From Promethearchaeota archaeon (GTDB lineage Archaea; Asgardarchaeota; Hermodarchaeia; Hermodarchaeales; Hermodarchaeaceae), in contig JBHLMI010000020.1 in assembly GCA_048938295.1 (NCBI GenBank), positions 11,796 to 43,795 on the forward strand: 32,000 bases of DNA, in the 5' to 3' direction. The notes beneath the pieces were generated by a model that ran no database searches, was not told the origin of the DNA, and saw only the letters and a list, made by a program, of their open reading frames with translations. Made by a program: the position numbers and the translations under genes. Below, one piece after another: positions 4,963 through 25,722 of this stretch. Position 1 is the first letter of the stretch. Each line of letters opens with the position of its first letter.

Positions 4963-6012
4963 TTAGTGAGGCGCTTTGATTTTTTGTGTTGCGATTTTTC
5001 GTAGTTGGTCCAGTCTTTCATCAACTAGTTCTTCATGTAAAAATAGGCTTTTAGCGATCATCTCTTCAATTACAGCTTGCCCCTGTTCAGTACGAACGAG
5101 AACTGAAGACCATTTGCCTGGAGTGCCTGCTCCACCCACGGAAATGTCTGCGAATTCGGAGGCAAAGTCCTTGCACCCATAACAGCCTGGGTCAACCCAG
5201 CCTTTCGCTTCGTTCAATGGAATTTCCAGCGATTCTTCGCCACCTCGAGGATAAACGAGTAGTTTGCCTTTGATGTCGAGTTTCCGTAGGTTCGCCAAAG
5301 GTACGTCGAGTTCACCAACGATTTTGTCTTCCATGAGTTCCTTGAATTTGAAAACTTCACTACAGAATAACCCGATGGTCATGACTACAGTTCGATCTAC
5401 TTTCTTTAGTGGGGCTAGCCGCATCCGTTGGATAGCCTGAATGTGGCAAGGTGTGCCTACGACGGCAACTTGTTTAAGTTTCAACTCTTTCATGGCATGC
5501 TTAAGAGCTACAAGATTTGCTGATCGTGTATATCGTGACTTGGCAGCAGATATGATGTCTGTGCGGGTCGTTGCGACCATTGGCTTGGGTTTCCAGGGCT
5601 CGTTAGGGTTAATTCCAGAAACGATAGCCCCCTCGATAGCGCCAGTCTCAAGTAGGTAAATAAGAATTGCTGTGACGATGCCACCATCCTGGGCTCGCTT
5701 TCGTATTGATTCATCCGCGTTTCGTAAAGCATAAGCTTGACGAAATACGCCGAGGACTGGATCCCTGTGCACATTTTCCCCATATACTATTGGATAGATA
5801 GCAGAATAATCGTCAATCATTCGGGGACAAGATTTCCAGCAGAACTCACACTTCGTACAATCTTTCACGAGTGTGGGGCGGAGATTTTGGAGTTCAATCG
5901 CTCCGATGGGACAGGCTGCTTCGCAGCCACCACAGCTGCAGCATTTCGCGGCATTAATCACATTGACCTCTAGGTGCTCGAACCCAAGCTTTTCAGTACT
6001 CAACGGTCTCAC
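4963..6012 (-). CDS. FrhB/FpoF-family F420-binding flavoprotein with an N-terminal 2x[4Fe-4S] domain
   Basis: CCSCGGCEAACP and CTKCEFCWKSCP ferredoxin motifs; AQDGGIVT, VVGTPCHIQA, IGLFCSE, GCYGCKDF..EFADISVG. Confidence 0.9.
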   Translation of the reverse strand: MRPLSTEKLGFEHLEVNVINAAKCCSCGGCEAACPIGAIELQNLRPTLVKDCTKCEFCWKSCPRMIDDYSAIYPIVYGENVHRDPVLGVFRQAYALRNADESIRKRAQDGGIVTAILIYLLETGAIEGAIVSGINPNEPWKPKPMVATTRTDIISAAKSRYTRSANLVALKHAMKELKLKQVAVVGTPCHIQAIQRMRLAPLKKVDRTVVMTIGLFCSEVFKFKELMEDKIVGELDVPLANLRKLDIKGKLLVYPRGGEESLEIPLNEAKGWVDPGCYGCKDFASEFADISVGGAGTPGKWSSVLVRTEQGQAVIEEMIAKSLFLHEELVDERLDQLRKIATQKIKAPH

Positions 6013-6096
6013 CGTTAATCAAAACGCTGTTGTAAAGACAAAAAGGAAGTCTGCCTACTTAAACTTGACAGACAGACCGAACTCGATAAAATAGAG

Positions 6097-6546
6097 CTAG
6101 TCGAGTTGCCTTATTTTGGATTCAACATGCATTTTACTGGCAACTGACCGAGAGACGTGACAATATTTCTCGGTTAAAGTCACTGCTCGTTGGACCTGTT
6201 GAAGGTTTGCCTCTTTGGGTATAGTGATGTTCATGGTGACGTAGATGTCGGAGAAATACCACCCTCCTTCAGGATGCTGACGTAATACTGCACGTCCCAG
6301 AGCTTGATGGGCTATTAGTGGTTGTTTCATTCGTTTCATCATACTAGCAAAGGTGGTGATATAACATCCCGTGACTGCGGACACGAAGAGATCCTGTGGT
6401 GAATAAACATCAGGTTTTCCATCCCAATAAACCGGCGCACTTATTGGCAACTCCGTTTTTCCAACTAAGCTGATGGTGCCTTCCTTGCCTCCGGTCCAAG
6501 TGACGGTTACATCAAATTCAATGGTTTTTGGTGTCTCGTCACCCAT
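6097..6546 (-). CDS. OsmC/Ohr family protein
   Basis: SPQDLFVSAVTGC...TEKYCHVSRS two-Cys OsmC pattern; start refined to ATG 6546. Confidence 0.88.
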   Translation of the reverse strand: MGDETPKTIEFDVTVTWTGGKEGTISLVGKTELPISAPVYWDGKPDVYSPQDLFVSAVTGCYITTFASMMKRMKQPLIAHQALGRAVLRQHPEGGWYFSDIYVTMNITIPKEANLQQVQRAVTLTEKYCHVSRSVASKMHVESKIRQLD

Positions 6547-6701
6547 TGATGATCCCTTCCTCGGCACTGACTTACTCGGGGTTTTTAGCTCTTCGGGAGA
6601 TTCGAACCGTCGGTAAAGATGCAACTGCGAAAGAAGTATTAGGTATCCTATATGACAGAATGTGTACTTTAGAGAGTATAGATAGAATTGAGGAGCTTAC
6701 A

Positions 6702-7823
6702 ATGACAGGAAGTTTCGCTAATATGGATCCCTTGGAAGTGCAAAAGGCCTTCCGAGATGCTGAACTTGCACAGAAAGCAGCGCAGAGAATCAAAGAACTA
6801 GCGAAGACGCGTTCCTTCAAGTTTATGCATCTGTGTGGAACACACGAGTATACTATTACACATTCGGGGCTTCGCCAGCTGTTACCTGAGAACGTGGAAT
6901 TAATCGCTGGTCCAGGATGTCCTGTTTGTGTCTGCCCACCTGAAGATGTCGCATTAGCAATTATGGTGGCAAAGCAGCCCAATGCCCTACTCACCACTTA
7001 CGGGGATATGATGCGAGTCCCAGCAGGTGACCTTGGGTCATTGAATACAGCACGCACCCAAGGAGCTCATGTGCAGGTCGTGTACAGCATGATGGATGCA
7101 ATCATTGCTGCTAAAGAACATCCCGACAAAGAAGTCGTCCACTTTGCAATTGGCTTTGAAACGACAACGCCTCCAACCGCTGCAGAAATTCTGGGAGATC
7201 CCCCCACAAATTTCAGTGTCTTGGTAAGTCATCGTCTCATTCCACCCGCTGAAGAATTTCTGCTTAAACAGGGCGAGGTCGGATTGCACGGTTTTCTTCT
7301 ACCAGGTCATGTTTCTGTCATCATTGGCGAGCAGGGATACGAGCACATATCTAAACGATGGAAAGTTCCTCAGGTTGTTGCTGGGTTTGAACCTTTGGAT
7401 GTGCTACTCGCCCTTGTGATGTTATTACAGCAAATTAAAGATGGTCGTGGAGAGGTTGAAAACGAATACACACGCGCTGTTACCTACGAAGGGAACGTCC
7501 GAGCCCAACAAATGATTGAACAAGTGTTCCAGCCAGTAGACTCACGGTGGCGTGGAATTGGTGTCATTCCGGAATCGGGTCTAGCCTTGCGTGAGAAATA
7601 CATGAATTTCGATGTGCGAACACGGTTTGAGATAGAAGTGGAACCACAAAAATATGAAATGCCTCCTGGATGTAAATGTGGTGAGGTGCTCCGTGGTATT
7701 ATGAGACCTGAGGAATGTCCACTCTTTGGGAACAAGTGTACACCGGAAAACCCCATTGGACCCTGTATGGTGTCTACGGAGGGGACTTGCAGTGTTGTTT
7801 ATGGGGCGCAGATGATTCCTTAG
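6702..7823 (+). CDS. hypD: [NiFe]-hydrogenase maturation protein HypD
   Basis: HLCGTHE, GPGCPVCV, GFETT, PGHVS, GFEPLD, CxCG..L.G...P.ECPLFG..C.P..P.GPCMVS.EG.C; start refined to ATG 6702 (SD GAGGAG). Confidence 0.97.
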   Translation: MTGSFANMDPLEVQKAFRDAELAQKAAQRIKELAKTRSFKFMHLCGTHEYTITHSGLRQLLPENVELIAGPGCPVCVCPPEDVALAIMVAKQPNALLTTYGDMMRVPAGDLGSLNTARTQGAHVQVVYSMMDAIIAAKEHPDKEVVHFAIGFETTTPPTAAEILGDPPTNFSVLVSHRLIPPAEEFLLKQGEVGLHGFLLPGHVSVIIGEQGYEHISKRWKVPQVVAGFEPLDVLLALVMLLQQIKDGRGEVENEYTRAVTYEGNVRAQQMIEQVFQPVDSRWRGIGVIPESGLALREKYMNFDVRTRFEIEVEPQKYEMPPGCKCGEVLRGIMRPEECPLFGNKCTPENPIGPCMVSTEGTCSVVYGAQMIP

Positions 7824-8163
7824 GTTTGTTCAGATAAGTTGCGAGAATGGTTTTGTGAAACCCGGGACTTTGAACCCATTTTTCCGCTAGTCGTTCAACT
7901 TCAATCACCTTTTCCCGGAGATAACGGTCGACAATAATTTCACGCTGAATATTTGGAATCCCTTGATTTTGCCAGAAGGTGTCCCGGATTTTCGGTGTGA
8001 TTGGTTGGGGAGTGTTAGTATTATCCTGCTCAAGGGTAAACCGGGCTAGTTGTGCAGCGAGTAGCTTTGAGTCGGTGTAGAGAATTCGTCCACGAATCCA
8101 GAGTCGACATTTAGCGCGTCCTATGCAAGGACCATGGACAGTTGGACAAAACACCACAATCAA
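7774..8163 (-). CDS. Hypothetical protein with an N-terminal C-x6-C-x5-C-xx-W motif
   Basis: Open 129-aa frame co-oriented with the upstream ORF; overlaps the hypD 3' end by 50 nt, so the C-terminus is uncertain. Confidence 0.45.
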   Translation of the reverse strand: MIVVFCPTVHGPCIGRAKCRLWIRGRILYTDSKLLAAQLARFTLEQDNTNTPQPITPKIRDTFWQNQGIPNIQREIIVDRYLREKVIEVERLAEKWVQSPGFHKTILATYLNKPKESSAPHKQHCKSPP

Positions 8164-8231
8164 TCACCGAAGGTTATCGTCGCAAGGTCAAAGATGAGAT
8201 AAAACTTTTCGTATGATCAGTTTCATGTTCA

Positions 8232-9149
8232 TTAGCCAATAGGCCAGTAGATGTCTTCTGATGCCGTTGTTGCTTCAGCAAGATCACGCATTAAGGTCAT
8301 GAGGGTGAAGATGTCATAGTTGATACCTTCCCCGATTGTGGCAAATCGTTGGGATTCATTCACGAATGCTGTTTCGGGACGCCAATCAGAAGGCCAAGAA
8401 GGAACTGTTTCGAATTGAATGATGGTTTGCTTTACACCATCAGCATATGTGATGATTAGGGGGACAGTTGGGAGCCGTAGGAGATAGCTCTCAGGCCGTA
8501 GGATATCGTCGATGCCGCTCCGCACGACTTGAATGGGAGGAAAGAAGCGTTTTCCCACCTCTCGTTCTATGGGAAATGGGATGAGCTGTTCAAGAGTGGT
8601 TACATCACGTGGGCTCAAGGAGCGCGTTTCCAAGGATTCACGAAGTAGTACAGATGCGGTAATAAGATCATTAGGTTTGGTAGCATGAGTTGGAAGGGTC
8701 GGTGCAGGCCCACGGGATGCGTTGAAGGCACCCTGTGGATTGAACCCTTCCGGGGTGATACCTGGATGAGTAGGATTGAGGGTCAACCATAAGGCAAATG
8801 GCAAGATGGGAGGCTGATTTGTGAAAATCGTGAGTTTAAGCTTATTGGAGAAAGGTCTTGTAAGATATAGGGTGTTAAAAGGTTCTGTTGAAGAGAGAGG
8901 GACAACTAACGTATAACCACCAAAATCAATAGGCGCAGGTGTTTTTCCCCGCATCTCCAAATCAACCGCAGCTTCAGAGTAGGATTTGATGCGTTCCAAA
9001 GCTTTAGGCATTAGGAGAAGATGGGGAGGTTCTTTAGTGTAGGGTTTGAGTTGTTCGAGGAAGGAGGAGAGTAATTGATTATGCTGATCTGTAGCTACAC
9101 GGTCTAAGAGTGTGAATAACGCTGGCTCTTGTTTCCGTAGACTTTCCAT
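8232..9149 (-). CDS. Hypothetical protein (305 aa) with a Pro/Thr-rich middle segment
   Basis: Long ORF starting 38 nt after the aor stop on the same strand; no family recognised. Confidence 0.7.
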   Translation of the reverse strand: MESLRKQEPALFTLLDRVATDQHNQLLSSFLEQLKPYTKEPPHLLLMPKALERIKSYSEAAVDLEMRGKTPAPIDFGGYTLVVPLSSTEPFNTLYLTRPFSNKLKLTIFTNQPPILPFALWLTLNPTHPGITPEGFNPQGAFNASRGPAPTLPTHATKPNDLITASVLLRESLETRSLSPRDVTTLEQLIPFPIEREVGKRFFPPIQVVRSGIDDILRPESYLLRLPTVPLIITYADGVKQTIIQFETVPSWPSDWRPETAFVNESQRFATIGEGINYDIFTLMTLMRDLAEATTASEDIYWPIG

Positions 9150-9187
9150 AGTTTCATCCTACTTGGATTCGCAGGAATCCTTTCTTC

Positions 9188-11023
9188 TCATAAATCATCG
9201 AGTCCGACTTTTTTAAGGGCAGCGGCTGAAGGGTGACCCGTCTTCCGGTCCCAGTCTCGGTAGGCATAGTAGTCATTTAGTTGCTTTTCAATGTCAGGAA
9301 CCATACCATGTGTGCCACCATTGGGAAGGGGCTGAAGCAGAAGTGTGGGAAGCCGGTCATCTTCGGGTGTGAATCCGAGATTAAGGTTGATGAGCCTTTT
9401 CAACGTGATAATCCGGTCTCCAATATGAAGCAGTTCTTGGGGAGTCGTTTTGCGACCAATAACAAGACTATAGAACTGGGCAATCTCAGCCACTGGGAAA
9501 GTAGGGAATTGACAGATGATTAGAGAGTTGGACACTTGGCGCCAGCTTTGTGACTTGGCGGCGATTTCGCCCATGCCTTCATCGGTTTGAGGGTCATCAG
9601 CATCGATTCCCAGCTCCATTTGGACCTGTCCTTGGAGAACCATATACATATCGCCGTCAAGATGGGTACCTCCCCGTGGACTAGTCGCATAGCTAGTCGC
9701 CATACCAAAAAGTGCACGGGGATCCCAACAGGATACTTCAAGACCCTTGACATGGACGGCTAGGTCTTCGGCATCATAGCGTTCTCCCATTGAGCGTACA
9801 CCTTCAGCGAGTATGTCACCAAAACCTTCCCGATGAGCGATCTGCTGGATTAGGTTGATAACTGGACCAGGGTTGCCCCATTCGAGGAGCATCCCCACCT
9901 CTTTGGGTGTCAACTTATCTTGGTTCATGAGGTAGTGGGCAAACCCGATAGAGTTTCCTGTGCTAATCGTGTCTAGACCCAAGTCATCACAGAGATGGCT
10001 CATTGTTAATACAGCATCGAGATTATCGATAAGTAGCATAGAGCCTAGTGCTGCTAGTGTTTCGTACTCGGGTCCAGATACTCGCGGAAGTTTATATTCC
10101 CCATCTGGTACTTCAACAACGCGACCACATTGAATGGGGCACCGGTGGCAGCCATCACGACCTACAAGCCGTGTTTCAGACAGGGTGGCTCCGCTAATGT
10201 TGTCATGAGTGGGAAATTCACCTTGAGTGAAGTATTTGTTAGGCATTGAACCGATTTCTTGCGAAGGACCTACTGCAGTTGCTGTGCCCATCATACGATA
10301 GCAGTCGGGCATGAAATCTTCTATCATGATTTTGTTTGCTGATCGGGCTAGTTCTACAAGTGCATCATGATTTGCCACAGGAACAGGTTGATCACCGACA
10401 ACTGCCACGGCTTTGAGGTATTTACTTCCCATTACAGCGCCAAGACCCATGCGTCCGGCGGCTCTCCCACCTTCAGACATTATGTTTGCGTATTTGACGA
10501 GGTTTTCGCCTGCAGGGCCAATACTAAGGGTGAAGAAGCGTTTTTCATCGATATCTTCGCGCAGCAGTTGTTGCGTTGCAGAAATGGTCTGAGACCAAAG
10601 GTGTTCTGCACTGTGGATTTCCGCATTACCATAAAGGAGTGAAAGATAGAGGGGCTTTTCTGCTCGTCCTTGAATGAGAATTCCATCATATCCTGCTTGT
10701 CGCATTTCAGCACCAAAATATCCTCCTATATCCGATTCGCCCCATAACTGAGTTAACGGTGAACGGGCACAAAGTGCCATGCGGCCAGAACTGGGCACGG
10801 CGGTTCCAACACAGGGTCCGGCCATCAACAGCATAGGGTTATTAGGACCCAATGGTTCCGTTTCCTTTGATAAGAGAGGATAAAGTATTCGAGCTGCAAG
10901 TCCAGCACCCCCAATGAACTGATCAGCCCAATCTAGTGGTGTGGGTGCATCTTTCAAGAGTCCTTTCGTTAAATCGACATGGAGCATTTTTCCGGTGAAG
11001 CCATTTCCGTTCTTCTTTGACAT
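9188..11023 (-). CDS. aor: Tungsten-type aldehyde:ferredoxin oxidoreductase family protein
   Basis: IGGAGLAARIL, RSPLT, GPAGENLVKYANI, GRAAGRMGLGAVMGSKYLKAV, GCHRCPIQCG, GPEYET, CDDLGLDTIS, VKGLE, RGGTH, P.....LKKVGL. Confidence 0.95.
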   Translation of the reverse strand: MSKKNGNGFTGKMLHVDLTKGLLKDAPTPLDWADQFIGGAGLAARILYPLLSKETEPLGPNNPMLLMAGPCVGTAVPSSGRMALCARSPLTQLWGESDIGGYFGAEMRQAGYDGILIQGRAEKPLYLSLLYGNAEIHSAEHLWSQTISATQQLLREDIDEKRFFTLSIGPAGENLVKYANIMSEGGRAAGRMGLGAVMGSKYLKAVAVVGDQPVPVANHDALVELARSANKIMIEDFMPDCYRMMGTATAVGPSQEIGSMPNKYFTQGEFPTHDNISGATLSETRLVGRDGCHRCPIQCGRVVEVPDGEYKLPRVSGPEYETLAALGSMLLIDNLDAVLTMSHLCDDLGLDTISTGNSIGFAHYLMNQDKLTPKEVGMLLEWGNPGPVINLIQQIAHREGFGDILAEGVRSMGERYDAEDLAVHVKGLEVSCWDPRALFGMATSYATSPRGGTHLDGDMYMVLQGQVQMELGIDADDPQTDEGMGEIAAKSQSWRQVSNSLIICQFPTFPVAEIAQFYSLVIGRKTTPQELLHIGDRIITLKRLINLNLGFTPEDDRLPTLLLQPLPNGGTHGMVPDIEKQLNDYYAYRDWDRKTGHPSAAALKKVGLDDL

Positions 11024-14850: not shown

Positions 14851-15336
14851 GTGATCTATATGTCCCGAGATGAAATTCAACAGAAACTCCACTGTCGACG
14901 TTGTGGTCGACCGCGCATTGTTAATCGAGTTAGCAAACCCAATCCGAATACAATCAAACTCTACATGATCTGCCCAGTGCACACTGCTGAGGTCGTCTAT
15001 TCAATGCCAGAAAACCGCTACGAGGAGGCCAGCGACCTAATCCGAGAACACGTCCTTCTATGCAAGAAGTGTGGACAACCCGTTGATATCGTTGGCCAAC
15101 GAGCAGGCAGTCTTTCAACAAATCTCAGCATCCAGTGCCCCGAACACGGCAGCGGTGAACGAATGATCAACAACTCGCTCCTTGACCCAATCCTCGCAGC
15201 AGTCCCAGCGAAACCAGCACCTTATGAAGTAAAGGCAACTGCTGGTGCTACAACAAAATTCTGTGCTAGCTGTGGTTCACCAGTCCCAACAGCTGAAGCC
15301 CGATTTTGTCACCACTGTGGCGCTTCACTTGAGTAG
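14851..15336 (+). CDS. Multi-zinc-finger protein: two CxxCG...CPxH repeats plus a C-terminal double zinc ribbon
   Basis: CRRCG...CPVH; CKKCG...CPEH; FCASCG...FCHHCGASL. Confidence 0.8.
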   Translation: MIYMSRDEIQQKLHCRRCGRPRIVNRVSKPNPNTIKLYMICPVHTAEVVYSMPENRYEEASDLIREHVLLCKKCGQPVDIVGQRAGSLSTNLSIQCPEHGSGERMINNSLLDPILAAVPAKPAPYEVKATAGATTKFCASCGSPVPTAEARFCHHCGASLE

Positions 15337-16309: not shown

Positions 16310-17299
16310 GTGGCAACACAGCCAATTGAAACCATGACAGCTCTTAAGTGCCAATCCTGCAACGCCCCCCTCGCAGTTTCTCCCGATGATGTCGTCATCA
16401 CCTGTGGTTACTGTGGTTTTACAGTTACCGTTGAGGGAGAGAAGGTAGAGAATCACTTTACCTTGGAGCCCACACTGACGGCGGATGAAATCCGCGATAT
16501 GGTTACTGAGTGGGTGGGTCGAGGTGGTAAAGCCCGAGTGACAGAATCACATCTGCGATTTGTTCCCTTTTGGGTGGAATCGATGCATGCGTATACCTCA
16601 TATCAGGGGTATAAGGAGCACCGCGAAACCGAATACTACACTGACTCACAAGGGAAACGGCGTTCACGAACTAAAATCGAATATGAACCCATCCAGGGCC
16701 AATTCGACGAGAATCGTTCAGTGAATGTCTTGTGTCGACGAGGCGCTACCTTCTACAGTCTTGGCGAATTGGATAAGGCACTAAACGTGACTAAGAGGGG
16801 AATCCAACCTTTTGATTACAATGCAATCACAGCCGTGGAAGAAAAGCCCCTCTTTTTGAATAGCGAACTCACCGACGATGATGCCTACGAGATTGCTGAA
16901 ACATTTATTTCCCAGGATCATCGCAGCCGCGCTGATTCCCGGGCCACAAAGATCTGGGACTGCAACAGCCGGATCAACAAGACCGGCTCATACCTATTGC
17001 ATGTCCCGCATTGGCTTGTCCGCTACCAATTTGGTACTGAAACGTATCGTGTTGGTATCGACGGACATACGAAGAAAATCCTGAAAGGTGAAGTACCCAT
17101 TTCTGCAAGCTATCGGGCTACTATGTTCGTGTTAAGCCTCATAGGAGTGCTCATTGGAACCATCGGCACCTACTTTGCTGCGCTACTACTCGCACCAGAC
17201 TATTCGTTCTTATCCTTGGTGCTAGTCGTTATTGGACTAGCAATTGGTGTCCTAGCGACCCGGAATAGCTTCAAGATACATGCAGAAAAACGAGGGTGA
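16310..17299 (+). CDS. Zn-ribbon protein with two C-terminal TM helices (YdjG-like), copy 1
   Basis: CQSCNA...TCGYCG; VPFW; YYTDSQGKRRSRT; VPHW..RY....Y.V.IDG.T..I..GEVP; two TM helices; GTG start with SD AGGAGG. Confidence 0.75.
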   Translation: MATQPIETMTALKCQSCNAPLAVSPDDVVITCGYCGFTVTVEGEKVENHFTLEPTLTADEIRDMVTEWVGRGGKARVTESHLRFVPFWVESMHAYTSYQGYKEHRETEYYTDSQGKRRSRTKIEYEPIQGQFDENRSVNVLCRRGATFYSLGELDKALNVTKRGIQPFDYNAITAVEEKPLFLNSELTDDDAYEIAETFISQDHRSRADSRATKIWDCNSRINKTGSYLLHVPHWLVRYQFGTETYRVGIDGHTKKILKGEVPISASYRATMFVLSLIGVLIGTIGTYFAALLLAPDYSFLSLVLVVIGLAIGVLATRNSFKIHAEKRG

Positions 17300-17322
17300 C
17301 TGAGGAAAAACGGTGAAAAGAA

Positions 17323-18312
17323 ATGGCAAAACATTGCATAAATTGTGGCGCACAGCTTAACATCCATCCAACGGATGCGATTATCACCTGTAACTATTGT
17401 GGTACTTCATTCACCCCTGAAGGGACAAGAATGAAGGAGCATTTTGCACTGGGAGTGAATTACACTCAAAGTGAGGCGCTTGATACTCTCAAAGCGTACC
17501 TGGTGAAGGTTCCTGGCGTCTCAGATGATTTAGCCTTACAAATCCAATTGCAGGATCTCTCAATGACCTACTACCCCTATTGGACTGTAACTGTTCAAGG
17601 GGATGTTGCCTACAAGGGAATTGACCGAAAAGCCTCATTCCGGGGCCAATCTGGTGGACGTTATTCAAGTATCCATTGGGAATGGGTTGCTGAATCCGGA
17701 CATCAAGAACAGACACGTCAAATCCGACTATACGCTGGACCCAAAACTCGTCCTGAAATAGTCAACTACCCGATTGCCACTCGGTCACGACGGTACTTCA
17801 ATTTCGAAGAAGTCCAGCAATATACAGGGAACGTGCTGTTTTCAAAGGTCTCAGAAGAAGATGCACGACAACAGGCAATCGCTGCTACACGTAATATGAT
17901 CTTTGCAAGGATAAAGCGAGAAACGGAAAAAATCGATGATACCCGGGAAAACTTTCAGGTCACCGACCAAGCCTACATCCACGTGCCCATCTATCATGTC
18001 AAATTCTCAGTTGGTGGAAACAAAAGCTATGAAGCAGCCCTTGATGCATCGAACGGTCGAGTTATTTATACCCAGATTCCCACCACCGCAGGATTCAAAG
18101 TGAAGACCATCGGCATGTCCCTTATATGGTTCCTTCTCACCATTGCAGGTGCCATCCTGACGTATTTAGGTTATTCTGAATTTTCACTCCTGGGACTCAC
18201 TCCAGCATATCTCTTCTACGCCGGTCTTGGACTGACGATCATTCCGTTGCTATTAGCCTTGATGACGATATTTTATGCCTCACGAAAAACCGCAGCAGAA
18301 CGAGCGCAATAG
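17323..18312 (+). CDS. Zn-ribbon protein with two C-terminal TM helices (YdjG-like), copy 2
   Basis: CINCGA...TCNYCG; YPYW; VPIY..KF.....Y...LDASNG.V; two TM helices; 23-nt gap with SD GGTGA; same 329-aa length as copy 1. Confidence 0.75.
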   Translation: MAKHCINCGAQLNIHPTDAIITCNYCGTSFTPEGTRMKEHFALGVNYTQSEALDTLKAYLVKVPGVSDDLALQIQLQDLSMTYYPYWTVTVQGDVAYKGIDRKASFRGQSGGRYSSIHWEWVAESGHQEQTRQIRLYAGPKTRPEIVNYPIATRSRRYFNFEEVQQYTGNVLFSKVSEEDARQQAIAATRNMIFARIKRETEKIDDTRENFQVTDQAYIHVPIYHVKFSVGGNKSYEAALDASNGRVIYTQIPTTAGFKVKTIGMSLIWFLLTIAGAILTYLGYSEFSLLGLTPAYLFYAGLGLTIIPLLLALMTIFYASRKTAAERAQ

Positions 18313-18419
18313 AAACCTGCCACATATGTCTACAACTGGTCACACACAGTCGATGTAGCGAATACCATCAATACTTGGGTATCAATTATGCTTCTCGTAG
18401 AAATCAGCTAGGTTGGCGA

Positions 18420-18434
18420 GATTTTATAAGGTCT
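18420..18434 (+). promoter_or_regulatory. TATA box of the helical-protein gene
   Basis: TTTTATAA at 18422-18429, about 35 nt before the start. Confidence 0.55.
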
Positions 18435-18464
18435 CAACCCAATGCCTAGATAGCGACCATCGAG

Positions 18465-19019
18465 GTGATCTCCTTGGGAGATAAAGATAAACCATCCATT
18501 ATGGAAAAAGTCGATGACGAACGCACTCTAACACAGAAAATCATGAAATTAATTCCCGGATGGCGGGGATACCGGATCAAGGAAGAACGGCGGAATGCCG
18601 ATCGAATTCTTCGTGACCAAATCGTCAACCGTCTACGAGAATCCACAGATAAAATTCAAGATATTCGTTCTGCTGTCGTGGAAAACGATATTGAAGAGGC
18701 CTACCGAATGGTTGACTCAGTTATGAGTCGAACGGAGAAGCTCATCAGCCAAATCGAACATGCGGATTATGGATACCGTCCCTTCTTTGACGCCATCAAA
18801 ATCAAAGAAGACGATTTAGAGAATATGCTCCGCTACGACAGTTGGTTTGTAGAGAACGTCCAAACCTTCGATCAACGCTGTGACGATGTCCTGACGTTGA
18901 TTGAAGATGATGCCGATGAAGCAATAGGTCACATCAAGGATCTTCGAAAAATGGTTTCGAAAATGAACCTCCAGTGGAAGGAACGAGAACAAGTCATCAT
19001 GGGTATTGAAGTCGTTTAA
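18465..19019 (+). CDS. Soluble, all-alpha/coiled-coil hypothetical protein
   Basis: IPGWRGYRIKEERRNADRILR...; charged heptad-like helices, no TM; followed by a T-rich tract. Confidence 0.8.
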   Translation: MISLGDKDKPSIMEKVDDERTLTQKIMKLIPGWRGYRIKEERRNADRILRDQIVNRLRESTDKIQDIRSAVVENDIEEAYRMVDSVMSRTEKLISQIEHADYGYRPFFDAIKIKEDDLENMLRYDSWFVENVQTFDQRCDDVLTLIEDDADEAIGHIKDLRKMVSKMNLQWKEREQVIMGIEVV

Positions 19020-19051
19020 CTAACTGGTTGCGACTACTGCCCCTGAAGTGT

Positions 19052-19082
19052 GTCCTTCCATTCTTTTTCTCTTTTTATTTCT
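19052..19082 (+). terminator. T-rich archaeal-type terminator
   Basis: TTCTTTTTCTCTTTTTATTTC, about 40 nt after the stop at 19019. Confidence 0.5.
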
Positions 19083-19280
19083 TCAAGTCAATAAAAGCCG
19101 TCGAGGATTTTTATGGATTCAAAGTGATCGACCATCTTGCCTTCCAATTCCCTTTTCGAGAGACTCGTAGAACGACTCTAAAGGGAGTTGTAGTTGAATA
19201 CTTATTTCATAATAAAAATCAATGAATCTTATTTTTCTAAACTGACTTGAATTTTAATGAGTGTTTAAAAGGAAGAAGAC

Positions 19281-20585
19281 TTGACACTATTAACAAAGTT
19301 TGACAGGTATAACAGGATGCCCTTCACCACAACAATTGATGAAAACTTGGCTCGTGGACGTAAAGCCATCAAAAGGGCTTCAATTGTTGTTTCACTCTTA
19401 ATCATTACATGGTTTCTCATAGCACACCTTTCGGGAAGCCTTGGCCTTTTAGCAAAGGGAGTCGACTCGATCTCAGATCTGATTGCCATTATCACAGTGT
19501 TTCTTGGATTATGGCTCGCTCAACGAGATCCCAACCAAAAATATCCCTATGGTTATTTCAAGGCAGAATCATTAGCAGCCCTGATTGTCGCAGTCTTTAT
19601 CTTTATAACGGGTTTAGGTGTGCTTTGGCAAGCAATCCAACGAATATTCATTCCAATAGAACTACGCTTCATCGATCTGGCATTAGTGGTTTCAATTGCA
19701 TCAATTCCAATCATCTTTGTCATGTCCTGGTATCTGAAAAAAATTGGTCGAGAAACTAGGAGTAATGCAGTATATAATAAGGGTCAAGAATTTCAAATGG
19801 ATATTTTGGCCTCGATTGCTGTTATCTTAGGATTGGTCTTTGCTTTAGTTGGATTACCATGGGTTGAATCCATTGTGGGATTTATAATTGGTCTGTTGAT
19901 TCTTAGAAGTAGTTTCCAATTGGCATATGAATCAATACTCGTCCTAATGGATGCTGGGCAAGATCTCGAAAAGATAAAGGCTATTGAACAACTCGCTGTA
20001 CCTGTTCTTGGTGTCCTTGGTGTTCATGACATAAAGTTACGAAGAGCAGGACCAATTTATTTTGGAGAAATGCACCTTGAAGTTGCTGGTAAAACAACGG
20101 TCCTCCAATCACATCGCCTCACAGAAGAAATCGAAGCACGAGTCAAAGAAGTGTACCCTGAAGTTCTTTCAGTTCTCGTTCATGTGGAGCCAGTAACACC
20201 TATCACCTTCCGCGTCGCATTTCCCGTAGACTCTCAGAATGCCACTCCCCAATCCAAGCCTAGCTCGGTATTTGGATTTGTTGATTTTTTCCTGATAATG
20301 GATATTCAACAGGAACAAATCTCACTCTGGGAGATTGTACCAAACCCTGCTTCACAACAGGAGAAAGAACGTGGGAAAGACACAGCGAAACTACTCATCG
20401 ATGCAAAGGTAGAGGTTGTCTTTGCGGAGAGAATGGGCGAAACCCCCCTAAGCATTCTCCGAAACCACTTGATCCGCGTTTATAAACAGGAGTCCAAGGC
20501 TAGCTGCCAAGAGAACCTCAAATACTTCTTTGCTGACCAACTGGATTATCTTACACCCAAAGAAACGACAGACCACCACAAGTAG
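19281..20585 (+). CDS. Cation diffusion facilitator (FieF-like) fused to a NifB/NifX-like (Nitro_FeMo-Co) C-terminal domain
   Basis: VDSISD, YPYGYFKAESLAAL, ZT_dimer motifs HDIKLRRAG and VLVHVEP, then RVAFPV...FG....I.D...PNP...G...A.LL....V.VV....MG. Confidence 0.9.
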   Translation: MTLLTKFDRYNRMPFTTTIDENLARGRKAIKRASIVVSLLIITWFLIAHLSGSLGLLAKGVDSISDLIAIITVFLGLWLAQRDPNQKYPYGYFKAESLAALIVAVFIFITGLGVLWQAIQRIFIPIELRFIDLALVVSIASIPIIFVMSWYLKKIGRETRSNAVYNKGQEFQMDILASIAVILGLVFALVGLPWVESIVGFIIGLLILRSSFQLAYESILVLMDAGQDLEKIKAIEQLAVPVLGVLGVHDIKLRRAGPIYFGEMHLEVAGKTTVLQSHRLTEEIEARVKEVYPEVLSVLVHVEPVTPITFRVAFPVDSQNATPQSKPSSVFGFVDFFLIMDIQQEQISLWEIVPNPASQQEKERGKDTAKLLIDAKVEVVFAERMGETPLSILRNHLIRVYKQESKASCQENLKYFFADQLDYLTPKETTDHHK

Positions 20586-20719
20586 ATCCAAGTCTATGTT
20601 ATTCCCAAAACAAAAATCGTTCAAAAAAGCAAAGTCGTAAAGTTGAAAAGGCTGAGCACGAATTGCAACACAGACCTTCTGTACCTTCCAAACTTGGATT
20701 TCCAGAGGGAGAAATCAAC

Positions 20720-21715
20720 ATGCCCGAAATAATCGAATGGAAAAACATGCGAAAGAACGACATCGTCTATCGATGGCCCAATGACCTCGTGAAATGGGGC
20801 AGCCAATGCCTCGTTCGCGAAAACCAAGCTGCCGTCTTCTACCGCGACGGCAAAGCCCTCGACGTAATGGGCGTTGGGCGCCACACCCTCACCACCGCTA
20901 ATGTTCCGATTCTCACAGGAATTCTACGCCGTATTGCAGGTTTCGACAAATCCCCCTTCAACGCTGAAGTCATCTTCCTAAACACGACCAAATTCCAAGG
21001 CAAATTCGGTGGCAAAGGCCAAACCCGTGATTTAGCTCCCCTCCAGTTCCATGGAGAATTTTGGTTCGAAGTGGAGGATGCACAAATCTTTGTTAACGAA
21101 GTCGTCGCTGGAGAAAACTACACCACTCAAGATGTTACCGACTTCATTCGGTCCAAATTCGTCGAACTCGCCATGGATGAACTCGCTGGCTATACCCTAC
21201 AAAACGCCATGACCCGCCTTGACGAAACCAGCATGAAAACCAAAACCATCCTCTCCGACAAGTTCGAAGAATACGGCCTTAAACTTCTAGACATGGCCTT
21301 CGCTGGAATGGACACTTCACCCGAATACCGCGAGCGCCTCTTCTTTGCCGTCCAAGGCGTCTCCGGCAACCAAGTTCTCACCGCTGAAACCATGCGCCGC
21401 AGCGCCGAAGCCCTCGGCCAAGGTGGCGGCGGAGGAGCTGCAGCTGGTGCTGGCATCGTCCTCATCCCACAACTCGCTGAAATGATGCGCCAATCCCAGA
21501 AGCCCCAAGAACAAGGCGTCACTCATGTCGCCTGCCCCTTCTGCGGCGCTGCAATGCCGCTGAAAGACGGTAAGCCTCCGAAATTCTGTTCAGAATGCGG
21601 AAAACAACTTCGTCAGGAAGTTGATGCACGGGTGAAAGCCAAGAAGTTTTGCCCAGAATGCGGGGCGCCTGCTTCGAAAGGGAAGTTTTGCAGTGAGTGT
21701 GGTGCTGAGCTTTAA
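20720..21715 (+). CDS. SPFH (band-7, YdjI/virion-core-like) domain protein with four C-terminal CxxC knuckles
   Basis: IVYRWP....KWGSQCLVRENQAAVFYRDGKA.D....GRHTL.T.N.P, SPF.AEV.F.N, G.F; tail CPFCG, CSECG, CPECG, CSECG; start refined to ATG 20720. Confidence 0.88.
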   Translation: MPEIIEWKNMRKNDIVYRWPNDLVKWGSQCLVRENQAAVFYRDGKALDVMGVGRHTLTTANVPILTGILRRIAGFDKSPFNAEVIFLNTTKFQGKFGGKGQTRDLAPLQFHGEFWFEVEDAQIFVNEVVAGENYTTQDVTDFIRSKFVELAMDELAGYTLQNAMTRLDETSMKTKTILSDKFEEYGLKLLDMAFAGMDTSPEYRERLFFAVQGVSGNQVLTAETMRRSAEALGQGGGGGAAAGAGIVLIPQLAEMMRQSQKPQEQGVTHVACPFCGAAMPLKDGKPPKFCSECGKQLRQEVDARVKAKKFCPECGAPASKGKFCSECGAEL

Positions 21716-21869: not shown

Positions 21870-23300
21870 TTGAGGCTAGCGAACTGTGTGTTGTGTGGTT
21901 CTAGGTTGAAAGGGTATGCTAAATGGCTAACATTTGCCCTGTTCGGGTTTTGCCTATTATTCTTCATATCTCCAGTTCAGGTGGGTGCGCAACCACCAGA
22001 AAGCTGGGTGCCTGGTAGTGAACGCCACTTCTTTGGCCATACCTTCGCTGAGGATTCGTGGACTAATGATTCCATAGTTTTTGAATCAGTAGAGAACGCT
22101 TCGGTCCAATTCATCGCCAGTTACCTGAACTATAAGGAAGGACCACGTTCATTTCAGGCCATGCTCCTAGCACTAGGAGTGATTGAGAACGAAAACGGTA
22201 CACAATCGACGCTTCCTTACCAGCTCTTCGGGTTGCATTTCACGACGAAGGGAGGACGGGATATCTTCGCCGGTTCGTTGTTAGCTTTCTTATTTGGATT
22301 CAATGACACTGATCACAACGGAATTCCAAGCCCTGGCGAGAACCGGTTTTTCATCATCCCGTATGGATATAATGAGGGGAACGCGACGGAGCCATTAACG
22401 GTCGAAGCGATTCCTGTGACGAAGTTGGGAGATGACCACTATCAGTTTGGGATTCGGTATCGGAACTTGTATGGTCGGTTGGTGTCAGCGAATAGTGAGG
22501 CTGATTTTTTGTGGACATTGATTGTTCCGTTCTTTGAAATCTCATTTAGCGAATTGACAGTAGTTTACGATGTCCAAGTAGATGTCGAGAGTGGAGAAAT
22601 CACCACTGAAACCTATTATACGATAGGTCAGGTTACCGAATTTCGGTTTCTTGGTATTCCAGTGCCCAACTTCCACGAGTCACTGAAGGATGTGGGAATC
22701 GGTGTTGCCCATTTGGGCATCATCTTGACAACTAGATATTATGCACGAACCGTTCCCTCAACGCCGATAAGTGGAACGGATCACACCCTTGTCAATATCT
22801 CGACGGACGCGGCGGGACGAAATCGAGCTTTCGCTGTGACCACTTGGGGAACCTACGATGTTCTCAATGAAAGTACACAGCCCATTTCACTAGTTCAAAG
22901 TGGCCTTCCCGCGTACAGTTGGATTCTCACCCCACAGCCAATTGACTTGGTCCTTTTACTCTGGCAGTTACCGATTTCAGCTAACATTTTCAGCATTTTT
23001 GCCTATGCCATGAGCGCGTACCTTCAAGACAATTTCGATGGGCCGCGAGACGTATATAATAACGCAGATCTAATCTTCAATGGCGCCGCTTTCTGGTATG
23101 GGACCACGTTTCCTAAATCGCAGGGGTATCGTGTTGAGTATGATCCCGTTTATACCGCGTTTTCAAATATCGGACAAGCCACGAATGTTCTGGGAGTGGT
23201 CCTCATCGGAACAGTGGTATTAGTCGCACTCATTATTGTGGTTCTACGCGTAGTGCGATCTAATGGCCGTAAGAAGCTCGCAGCTGAAATGGAAGCGTAA
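21870..23300 (+). CDS. Secreted, C-terminally membrane-anchored glycoprotein of unknown family, paralog A
   Basis: Signal peptide (...LLFFISPVQVGA-QPP), at least 7 N-x-S/T sequons, DTDHNG motif, C-terminal TM plus basic tail; start possibly TTG 21906. Confidence 0.85.
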   Translation: MRLANCVLCGSRLKGYAKWLTFALFGFCLLFFISPVQVGAQPPESWVPGSERHFFGHTFAEDSWTNDSIVFESVENASVQFIASYLNYKEGPRSFQAMLLALGVIENENGTQSTLPYQLFGLHFTTKGGRDIFAGSLLAFLFGFNDTDHNGIPSPGENRFFIIPYGYNEGNATEPLTVEAIPVTKLGDDHYQFGIRYRNLYGRLVSANSEADFLWTLIVPFFEISFSELTVVYDVQVDVESGEITTETYYTIGQVTEFRFLGIPVPNFHESLKDVGIGVAHLGIILTTRYYARTVPSTPISGTDHTLVNISTDAAGRNRAFAVTTWGTYDVLNESTQPISLVQSGLPAYSWILTPQPIDLVLLLWQLPISANIFSIFAYAMSAYLQDNFDGPRDVYNNADLIFNGAAFWYGTTFPKSQGYRVEYDPVYTAFSNIGQATNVLGVVLIGTVVLVALIIVVLRVVRSNGRKKLAAEMEA

Positions 23301-23425
23301 GGTGTTGACGATATGTATAAAGGCGCAATTTCCTCAGTGAGTATAGAAGGTGGCTACTCCAACTTTTACGGAGAGCAGTCTATGGACTTTAAGTTATGAC
23401 AAGATACTGGGGATGAAACCGACCA

Positions 23426-24172
23426 ATGACGGATTTGGACGAATTTCTTACTGCGATTGGCCATCCGTTACGTCGTCAAATCCTTGAAACTGTCTACGAA
23501 ACCCCAGGTATCTCCTATTCACAAATCCTTGCGCGAATGAATATTTCCAGCGGTAAACTTAATTTCCATTTACAGCGGTTGGAACCGTTTCTTGCCCAAG
23601 TTAATGGTGAATACCAGATTTCTAATGAAGGTTTGAAGCTGTATCGGACATGGAAAATGCTGGAAGGTCGCCTCAGCGGAACCCAAATCACAGGCACGGC
23701 TACTCCTGGACTTTTTGTAGGTCGTCGGACGTTGGCATTTCTTATCGACGTCATATTAATCCTGTCTGTGCTATTCATTGCAGCAGATTTTTCGTCAGCA
23801 TTCACATTAGTTCCAGCTTGGTGGCTCAGTGGATTTCCCCTGCCCCTTTTCGTCACAAGGATTGTTGACACGTTTCTAATCTACCCCGATTTGACAGTTG
23901 TCCTGATCCGTGCCTTCATTGTGGCGATTTTGTGGATGTATTTCACCTTACTAGAGGGCTATCGGGGACAATCACTTGGTAAGATGATACTGGGGATTCG
24001 CATCGTAGATGTGAGTGGTGCCCGTGTCGCTCAACAACCCGCGGCAATCCGGGCTCTCACTAAGGTGCTCATCTTACCTTTCGACATTCTGGTAGGACTA
24101 ATTAAATCACGTAAGGCAGGATTTCTCCGGTTCTTCGGGCAATATACTCGGAGCTGGGTTGTTCGGAACTAA
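23426..24172 (+). CDS. ArsR-like winged-HTH fused to an RDD-family membrane domain
   Basis: AIGHPLRRQIL...ISYSQI...ISSGKLNFHL..L wHTH; RRTLAFLID...YFTLLEG..GQSLGKM.LGIRIV...R RDD motifs. Confidence 0.88.
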   Translation: MTDLDEFLTAIGHPLRRQILETVYETPGISYSQILARMNISSGKLNFHLQRLEPFLAQVNGEYQISNEGLKLYRTWKMLEGRLSGTQITGTATPGLFVGRRTLAFLIDVILILSVLFIAADFSSAFTLVPAWWLSGFPLPLFVTRIVDTFLIYPDLTVVLIRAFIVAILWMYFTLLEGYRGQSLGKMILGIRIVDVSGARVAQQPAAIRALTKVLILPFDILVGLIKSRKAGFLRFFGQYTRSWVVRN

Positions 24173-24206
24173 CCAACCCGTTCTACTCGGAAAATCTTAG
24201 TAAACC

Positions 24207-24250
24207 TTAGTTTTCTAGACTGAAAACTAAACTTATCAGCTTCTTTAAAT
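24207..24250 (+). promoter_or_regulatory. Palindromic operator plus TATA box of paralog B
   Basis: Perfect TTAGTTTTC-N6-GAAAACTAA (24207-24230), 13 nt upstream of TTTAAAT (24244-24250). Confidence 0.6.
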
Positions 24251-24327
24251 TCGTCATTTGAGAGGGAGAGCTAACGAGCAAACACTTGCCGATAACGGTA
24301 AAGATGTGCTTAAAATTGATAAGCAAA

Positions 24328-25722
24328 ATGAAAACCATTCCAATAGTGGCTCTAGCGCTTGCATTGACAGTTGTCTTGGCTCCAATGACTACTACCGCCC
24401 TCCCACCTGAGACATATGTTCCAGGCAGTGAAGCAGCGATCTTTGATCACACATTCGCTGAGCATTTCTGGAGTAGCACGAAGACATTCACAAACGAGAC
24501 ATCAGGTGACAGTATCGAGATCATCATGCACAGCGTCAATTACCAAGGTGCTGGTGAATTCCAAGCGGCCCTGTTAGCTCTGGGCGATGTGTATATTGCG
24601 GAAAACGATACCAGTGCGACTTTACCCTATCAAATCTTCGGCATGCACTTCACAACTCCTGAAGGACATGAAATGTTTACTGGGGCAATTTTTGCCTTCA
24701 TGTTTGCCTTTAACGACACAAATGGCAACAATGTTCATAATCCCGGAGAAGATCAATGGTTTGTCATTCCATATGGATATGATAATCCAGAAAGCAATCA
24801 CACTGGCACTGATCCCACCGTTGAATCCATTGATATGACTAATCCCAATCCTGGTGAATACCGTTTTGGCGTTAGCTACAAGAATCTCTACGCGCGACTA
24901 GTTTCCACAGAAAATTGGTTAGCCTTCTGGCTAACCTTAGCAGTACCTTTCGTTGAAGTCCAAATTAGTGAACTGACATTCGAATATGTCATCAACGTAG
25001 ATGAATCGACTGGTGAAATTACCGCTGAAACTTTCTACACCATTGGGCAGGTCCAATCCTTGCATTTCCTCGGTCAGACACTCGATGTTCCTGACCAAGA
25101 AATTCACAACGCCCTAGCCAATGTTACTGTAGGTGTCGCACACCTGATAACAGCATGGGGTTCAACTTATCACGTCCACAACGGAAATCAACTCGATCCT
25201 CAACCTGCGGCCAATTGGATTTACGCAAACATCACTACCGATGCCCTTGGACGAGACCGCGCCTTCGCAGTTGGTGTCCGAGGAACCTATGATCTCCAAA
25301 ACGAAACAACTGAACCTTACCCAACGCTCAACGCAAGTCTTCCAGCATATAGTTGGATCTTGTCGCCTGCGCTCTTTTCACTTGAAACGTTGCTTGTGCT
25401 CTGGCAATTACCACTCTCAGCAGACTTTCTAGCTTTGTGGGCGTACGCTATCAGTCCAACGATGCAATCGATGTACACTGGACCTCGCGCGCTCTACCAA
25501 CACGCCTATGAAAACTTTAACAAGATTGCCTTCTGGTACGCAATCACCTTCCCCAAGTTTGGCGGATATCGTATTGTCCACGATCCCGTGTATACAGCCT
25601 ACTCCAATGTTGGACAGGTTGCACCTCCAGGTATCCCCGGATTCCCATGGGAAGCCATCCTGATTGGCGTCGTCGTCTGCGTGGTTGCTGTCTTCCTCGT
25701 TCGCCGCCGTAAGAAAGCGTAA
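24328..25722 (+). CDS. Secreted glycoprotein of unknown family, paralog B, with a PGF-type C-terminal sorting signal
   Basis: MKTIPIVALALALTVVLAPMTTTA signal peptide; 8 sequons; collinear motifs with paralog A; ends PGIPGFPWEAILIGVVVCVVAVFLVRRRKKA. Confidence 0.87.
   Translation: MKTIPIVALALALTVVLAPMTTTALPPETYVPGSEAAIFDHTFAEHFWSSTKTFTNETSGDSIEIIMHSVNYQGAGEFQAALLALGDVYIAENDTSATLPYQIFGMHFTTPEGHEMFTGAIFAFMFAFNDTNGNNVHNPGEDQWFVIPYGYDNPESNHTGTDPTVESIDMTNPNPGEYRFGVSYKNLYARLVSTENWLAFWLTLAVPFVEVQISELTFEYVINVDESTGEITAETFYTIGQVQSLHFLGQTLDVPDQEIHNALANVTVGVAHLITAWGSTYHVHNGNQLDPQPAANWIYANITTDALGRDRAFAVGVRGTYDLQNETTEPYPTLNASLPAYSWILSPALFSLETLLVLWQLPLSADFLALWAYAISPTMQSMYTGPRALYQHAYENFNKIAFWYAITFPKFGGYRIVHDPVYTAYSNVGQVAPPGIPGFPWEAILIGVVVCVVAVFLVRRRKKA

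Follow-up and report, generated by a model that had tools for sequence, protein, structure and literature searches.

Scaffold proteins with an SPFH domain and proteins of the ESCRT-III type (endosomal sorting complex that is required for transport) are among the few membrane-organising systems common to all domains of life. To our knowledge, the only demonstrated prokaryotic link between the two so far is that of YdjI and PspA in Bacillus, which are encoded in B. subtilis by the sigma-W operon pspA-ydjGHI, renamed pspA-samGHI. The locus described here occupies positions 16310-21715 on the plus strand of a stretch of 32,000 nucleotides (nt), the whole of which is referred to as the window, and consists of five co-oriented open reading frames (ORFs), designated A, B, H, CDF and SPFH in their order. 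A previous sequence-only reading of the window had described two zinc-ribbon paralogs with two transmembrane (TM) helices each, a helical soluble protein and an SPFH protein with four CxxC motifs and no TM segment, interrupted by a gene for a cation diffusion facilitator (CDF), and had proposed a variant archaeal system of the YdjG/YdjI type. All five ORFs were verified, and both the homology and the gene clustering behind the proposal were found. We consider it reasonably probable that A, B, H and SPFH make up a membrane complex that is related to YdjG/YdjI (SamG/SamI) of Bacillus but lacks PspA, and in which H is an additional, conserved third partner.

The host assembly comprised 2.52 Mb in 66 contigs and was 91.6% complete. 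Close homologs were labelled, among other names, as archaea of the Promethearchaeota, Hermodarchaeota and Thorarchaeota, and the host belongs to the Asgard archaea and is of the Hermodarchaeota type, a possibility that had been considered in the sequence-only reading. No gene for PspA, Snf7 or TPM (the family of YdjH) was present in the window, which agreed with the earlier description, and in the host genome zero matches were obtained for PspA_IM30 (PF04012) and for TPM (PF04536). PspA was also above the cut-off in 0/201 of the Asgard genomes, which together with 151 Chloroflexota genomes were the samples used for the counts by genome. The Snf7 genes of the host, two adjacent genes above the Pfam cut-off, were located only on a contig other than that of the window, and its EAP30 gene was likewise outside the contig of the window. 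The Snf7 pair (genome G000, contig C6:13323-14403, loci L001 and L002) adjoins a 425-amino acid (aa) ORF on the opposite strand and is probably the canonical Asgard ESCRT-III cluster.

The genes A (16310-17299) and B (17323-18312) are separated by 23 nt and encode proteins of 329 aa each. The two proteins were aligned by BLASTP with 23% identity over 325 residues (E 4e-24), which indicated that they are paralogs. Each contains one N-terminal zinc ribbon of the form CxxC-x14-CxxC (C14, C17, C32 and C35 in A) and two C-terminal hydrophobic helices, which make up a TM hairpin at about 264-321 in A and at 260-321 in B. Between the ribbon and the hairpin, A has a beta-rich domain with the motifs PFW and HVPxW, predicted to be cytoplasmic. 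The AlphaFold2 (AF2) model of A reached a predicted local distance difference test score (pLDDT) of 92 and a predicted template modelling score (pTM) of 0.83. A Foldseek search with this model returned nothing at E <= 0.001, and the VIA matches, for which the full A model was the query, had Z <= 6.2 and fell mostly over the TM hairpin.

The YdjG reference was taken from a Bacillus pspA-ydjGHI locus in public metagenome contigs, which was retrieved with a degenerate pattern derived from the ydjG primer in PMC8581546. By Pfam, the retrieved locus contained PspA_IM30, a 341-aa YdjG with a TFIIB-type zinc ribbon, a TPM protein (YdjH) and a YdjI with Band_7_1 and a zinc ribbon. A profile built from 24 A and B orthologs was aligned with this YdjG by hhalign at a probability of 98.4% (E 4.3e-15, 239 columns), residues 11-266 of A/B corresponding to 52-313 of YdjG. 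The aligned region covered the second zinc ribbon and the whole central domain of YdjG, including P-[FY]-W and H-x-P-x-W, so that the resemblance to YdjG and the fit of the PFW and PxW motifs, both judged by eye in the sequence-only reading, were substantiated. The four cysteines, P86, P233 and P263 were invariant in 54 archaeal and bacterial members of the YdjG family. When the A+B profile was run exhaustively with HMMER, 3417 representative proteins, bacterial members among them, passed E <= 1e-3, of which 931 also passed E <= 1e-10, and no Pfam or NCBIfam model was found that covers this family. In Asgard genomes the A/B genes usually occurred as tandem pairs or triplets. In the tree, the B-type genes of three Asgard families formed one clade with 100/100 support; the duplication is old because this second-gene clade spans three families, and its maintenance is what would be expected for two proteins that probably form a heteromer. 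In a Chloroflexota locus (Phototrophicaceae, L064, 6001-8541), the gene for a YdjG-family protein of 485 aa, which carries additional zinc ribbons at its N-terminus, precedes one for a protein of 359 aa without Pfam family, and in these two genes bacteria may have an equivalent of the A/B pair.

The SPFH gene is contained in an ORF at 20663-21715. Its likely start is 20720, which is supported because the orthologs begin with MP..IEW, and the gene was accordingly placed at 20720-21715 on the plus strand. The protein matched Band_7_1 (PF13421) with E 1.6e-24 and 87.2 bits against a cut-off of 24, and a DZR match (E 8e-7) was also detected. The Band_7_1 domain is followed by a linker rich in Gly and Ala and by two C-terminal zinc ribbons, which account for the four CxxC motifs; no TM segment was found. 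BLASTP against Bacillus YdjI gave an E value of 1e-17 over the full length with identical domain order, although YdjI has one zinc ribbon and the archaeal protein two. Through these matches and the shared architecture, the designation of this protein as YdjI-like held. The cage-forming HflK/C, flotillin and stomatin proteins share with it the SPFH core domain and, by analogy, would share a location at the membrane on its cytoplasmic side. Unlike them, it lacks both an anchor of its own, whether TM segment or hairpin, and an NfeD partner, and the helical region after its SPFH domain is short. A second, weak Band_7_1 match of 27 bits, just above the cut-off, was located in a 326-aa ORF of the host genome (G000 contig C14:5044-5325, L006), possibly a further paralog of SPFH. 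When A, B, H and SPFH were scanned with PADLOC and PHROGs, no matches were obtained, and hence no hint that they derive from phages or defence systems.

The third partner, H, is encoded in an ORF at 18465-19019, with a likely start at 18474 that is the one used by the orthologs, so that the gene spans 18474-19019 on the plus strand and its product is 181 aa long. The protein is free of TM segments and was modelled by AF2 as an all-helical, compact four-helix bundle (mean pLDDT 76, pTM 0.70). Its conserved segments are PGW/Y-x-GY-x2-KE-x-RR-x2-D-x2-LR and an ADYGY loop. The NCBIfam model NF047596, the LIMLP_15305 family of a Leptospira hypothetical protein for which no function is described, is of similar length and was aligned with H end to end (E 6e-11; residues 10-175 of H to positions 8-173 of the 175 in the model). 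The same match was present in 13/13 orthologs tested. The score of 42 bits stands against a curated cut-off of 210, and H is therefore a distant relative of LIMLP_15305 and not a member of the equivalog.

H was also compared with the ESCRT-III superfamily. Pfam searches gave only weak coiled-coil noise and no PspA or Snf7 match even at E <= 1, and the hhalign probabilities against Bacillus PspA and against the Snf7 proteins of the host itself were 0.1-0.3%; on these grounds H shows no detectable relationship to PspA or Snf7. Fold searches with H (Foldseek against the Protein Data Bank (PDB), an ESM Atlas shape search and a wide VIA-align search) returned generic four-helix-bundle matches only, with no ESCRT-III, PspA or Vps28 entry among them. 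The best of these matches was a designed repeat protein with Z 11.7, which is within the helical-bundle background. The H profile against PDB sequences gave only insignificant matches, among them the helical N-terminal part of the Pasteurella dermonecrotic toxin with E 0.03. 

The H family was found in 82/201 Asgard and 23/151 Chloroflexota genomes, and a profile built from the Asgard members was aligned with a Chloroflexota member at a probability of 99.5% (E 3e-22). The alignment search of genome contigs had reached only genomes of the Hermodarchaeota type, and the distant relatives came from a genome-wide profile search. H had no match in the Bacilli metagenome-assembled genome (MAG) that carries a YdjI-YdjG pair, and it was not detected in B. 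subtilis by a control search with NF047596. On sequence grounds, H is a wide family without a name or a Pfam model, distantly related to the NCBIfam family LIMLP_15305. Some H copies appear broken. In-frame TAG or TAA stops lie inside the H matches of three genomes of Asgard family f7 (G056, G076 and G082), and the H ORF is shortened to about 130 aa in L050 and L060 (f7) and in L045 (family f18), where no in-frame stop was reported. Directly 3' of each of these copies, the SPFH gene is nevertheless intact; the altered H reading frames could stem from decay, from errors of assembly or from recoding.

The sequence-only reading had left the clustering of these genes to be examined in other genomes, and linkage was found across Hermodarchaeota, other Asgard families, Chloroflexota and a Bacilli MAG. 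Within Hermodarchaeota, the order A-B-H-(CDF)-SPFH was kept in 16 further loci, and A, B, H and SPFH were contiguous in L004. Beyond this group, H was directly 5' of SPFH in three Asgard families, namely f2, whose genomes measure about 1.4 Mb, f7 and f18, with a gap of <= 21 nt or an overlap of 4 nt, and in f6 and f26 the starts of the two genes were separated by 1.6-10.5 kb. Of the 23 Chloroflexota loci with H, 14 had an SPFH gene of the YdjI type directly 3' of it on the same strand. In the Bacilli MAG, a YdjG-family gene was directly 3' of a Band_7_1 gene, and the 13-kb locus contained no PspA or TPM gene.

The co-occurrence counts, which were not corrected for genome relatedness and are inflated by it, showed an association of these families. 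Among the 201 Asgard genomes, A/B was present in 103, SPFH in 94, H in 82 and all three in 72; A/B and SPFH occurred together in 92, A/B without SPFH in 11, SPFH without A/B in 2 and neither in 96. The largest Asgard family without any of A/B, H and SPFH was f9 (0/41). The YdjG family was found in 11/151 Chloroflexota genomes, and 11/11 of these were among the 23 that carry H. The same association is found in an archaeal and in a bacterial phylum despite the relatedness of the genomes. The sequence-only reading had treated the helical protein as a different effector in the place of PspA; the present comparison recasts H as the most tightly linked cross-domain partner of YdjI-type SPFH proteins, and not as a local replacement of PspA.

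The archaeal locus resembles pspA-ydjGHI in a zinc-ribbon membrane protein of the YdjG family, homologous over about 240 residues, in a Band_7_1 SPFH protein that is soluble and has a linker of low complexity before a C-terminal zinc ribbon, and in the linkage of the two genes. It differs from the Bacillus system in the absence of PspA and of TPM (YdjH), in the duplication of the YdjG-like gene, in its form with one ribbon and two TM helices, into the old A/B pair, and in the addition of the H family. According to two reports on B. subtilis, the membrane localisation of YdjI and PspA requires YdjG and YdjH (PMC8581546, PMC13713150). A and B would probably form a heteromer that is held in the membrane through the helical hairpin at the C-terminus of each protein. 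Their zinc ribbons and beta-rich domains would face the cytoplasm, where the zinc-ribbon domains could dock the soluble SPFH protein as YdjG and YdjH do for YdjI. H would bind SPFH as an adaptor or regulator. The SPFH platform might in turn be coupled to membrane-remodelling machinery and, in at least one lineage, be wired to ESCRT-II. The homologies, the architectures, the gene pairs and the co-occurrence are observed, whereas the A-B heteromer, the recruitment of SPFH by A/B and an effector role of H are inferences, and the output could be membrane repair or remodelling, or signalling as has recently been argued for SamGHI.

Several observations weigh against the proposal of one complex made of A, B, H and SPFH. 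A and B have one zinc ribbon and two TM helices, whereas in YdjG there are two ribbons and a single, weak TM helix at the C-terminus; the extra ribbon of YdjG, at residues 5-45, is of the TFIIB type (PF08271, E 1.3e-10) and was matched in neither A nor B, and in the tree of the family the bacterial two-ribbon forms constitute a separate clade. The synteny within Hermodarchaeota says little because the flanking genes are just as syntenic as the module genes, and the co-occurrence counts carry the inflation described above. A distance of 138 kb to about 1 Mb separates the A/B array from H-SPFH in several Asgard genomes that are complete, and the link of A/B is therefore phyletic more than positional. 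At the present locus, the module is probably not transcribed as a single unit but from several promoters. A and B, 23 nt apart, are probably co-transcribed. The gap of 161 nt between B and H contains a TATA-like hexamer, TTTATA, at 18423-18428 on the plus strand, 46 nt 5' of the H start, which may be a separate promoter for H. The gap between H and CDF is 261 nt, and T-runs occur 3' of H at 19064-19112 in a spacer of 35% GC. Contacts among A, B, H and SPFH are at this stage proposed from sequence; a complex prediction for SPFH and H, both given as alignments, scored 0.00, which speaks neither for nor against binding.

The same proteins could instead constitute a membrane-associated signalling or regulatory complex, in which SPFH restrains its membrane partners, as is discussed for SamI and SamH, and H serves as a regulatory subunit. 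A 2026 study of B. subtilis presents SamI mainly as a regulator of SamG/H, and in the host genome no physical link exists between the module and the ESCRT genes, both of which would suit such a role. The partner proposed in Bacillus is the TPM protein SamH, however, and the host has no TPM gene; no recognisable output domain was found by Pfam or NCBIfam in A, B, H or SPFH; and the fusion of an H-like domain with EAP30 described below points to machinery of the ESCRT type. We regard a signalling complex as possible but on the unlikely side. If only H and SPFH were a functional pair, A and B would be neighbours through lineage-specific synteny with an independent function. This would be consistent with H-SPFH adjacency as the tightest and most widespread signal, with the A/B arrays far from H-SPFH in complete genomes of other Asgard families and with the 2 Asgard genomes in which SPFH but no A/B was detected. 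The pair alone is nevertheless quite improbable in view of the joint presence and joint absence of A/B and SPFH in the Asgard genomes, of the H genes in every Chloroflexota genome with a YdjG-family gene, and of the adjacency of YdjG and YdjI genes in Bacillus and in the Bacilli MAG, to which the B. subtilis work adds an experimental dependence (PMC8581546).

We judge it highly improbable that H belongs, as a strongly diverged protein, to the PspA/ESCRT-III superfamily or is analogous to it in function, acting on the membrane as a substitute for PspA. In favour of this idea, H is a small and soluble helical protein, the Asgard genomes yielded no PspA, and the model of H resembles membrane-active bundles (Rx-CC, NRG1 CC-R, MLKL and SPECT) with Z 7-11, within the helical-bundle background. 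Against this stand hhalign probabilities of < 1% to both PspA and Snf7 and the lack of any corresponding Pfam match; moreover, H is predicted to be a compact four-helix bundle and not the long alpha1-alpha2 hairpin of ESCRT-III, and its fold matches included no ESCRT-III entry. The PspA-less relative of the YdjG/YdjI complex, with H as an added partner of SPFH, is the reading that we prefer.

A lead towards ESCRT came from locus L057 (Asgard family f15), where one protein of 386 aa combines an N-terminal domain resembling H with an EAP30/Vps36 module. The H-like domain begins with PGWRKE and was aligned by hhalign at 92.3% (E 5e-7, 148 columns), and EAP30 (PF04157) was matched with E 6e-17 and 62 bits against a cut-off of 27. 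On one strand of this locus, at 5770-10040, follow a double-zinc-ribbon protein (495 aa), the H-like and EAP30 fusion, and, directly 3' of the fusion gene, an SPFH protein (523 aa) that has Band_7 with an N-terminal zinc ribbon. Coupling to membrane remodelling may be the output of the module because an H-like domain is fused to EAP30 in one Asgard lineage, and such a coupling would parallel the recruitment of the ESCRT-III relative PspA by YdjI in Bacillus. Caution is required, as the fusion occurs in one lineage only and with moderate hhalign probability, and the EAP30 and Snf7 genes of the host are on contigs other than that of the window. In Makarova et al. 2024, SPFH and zinc-ribbon proteins are described in archaeal ESCRT neighbourhoods and YdjI-PspA is cited as a possibly ancient SPFH-ESCRT-III connection (PMC10936438). 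The fusion beside an SPFH gene in L057 fits this theme, whereas the window differs from these neighbourhoods in having no ESCRT gene nearby. The SPFH link in that work is that of the methanogen 'Meth_adaptin' systems, and its SPFH passages contain no YdjG-like pair, no H family and no Asgard/Chloroflexota module (PMC10936438). Nor was a description of the H family or of the three-family module found in the accessible parts of the literature on YdjG/YdjI/PspA, LIMLP_15305, COG4260/PF13421/Band_7_1 and Asgard/ESCRT/SPFH.

The CDF gene (19281-20585, plus strand), which lies between H and SPFH, encodes a metal-efflux transporter with Cation_efflux (E 2.5e-41) and ZT_dimer domains. A C-terminal Nitro_FeMo-Co domain (PF02579, E 5.6e-13) is fused to it, and the same fusion was seen in L003. 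The gene is missing between H and SPFH in the Hermodarchaeota loci L004, L014, L015, L017 and L018 and in loci of f2, f7 and f18 outside Hermodarchaeota, where H abuts SPFH. It was rejected as a part of the system because its presence at this position varies among loci, and it is probably a lineage-specific insertion, a passenger outside the module.

On the 3' side of SPFH, two paralogous membrane proteins of about 476 aa without Pfam family are encoded at 21870-23300 and 24286-25722, and between them lies a gene with helix-turn-helix and RDD domains (23426-24172). This trio (21870-25722) is syntenic 3' of SPFH across the Hermodarchaeota loci, and in related loci the downstream membrane-protein copy is about 45% identical to the 476-aa query. 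On the 5' side, a 161-aa CxxC-rich protein (DZR, Zn_Ribbon_1 and a 4-Cys prefix domain) is encoded at 14851-15336, two genes from A and beyond a divergently transcribed TrmI-like gene. It was kept in all related loci that cover the position, and it may be a further zinc-ribbon partner or merely syntenic.

Taken together, the locus points to a conserved, unstudied membrane module that would work without PspA. The YdjG/YdjI core is present without PspA in archaeal relatives of eukaryotes, and it is accompanied by an uncharacterised third family, whose gene keeps a tight coupling with that of SPFH in Asgard archaea as well as in Chloroflexota. The locus offers a concrete set of small proteins in which the binding of the partners, the access of SPFH to the membrane through A/B and the handover by H to ESCRT components can be addressed. 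A broader proposal, which we hold to be unlikely, is that SPFH platforms of the YdjI type have in the H family an adaptor that is ancient and dedicated to them, and that couples them to ESCRT-II/ESCRT-III in Asgard archaea. If this were true, the flotillin-ESCRT link of eukaryotes and the YdjI-PspA link of Bacillus would trace to a shared prokaryotic module of a YdjG-like anchor, H and SPFH.

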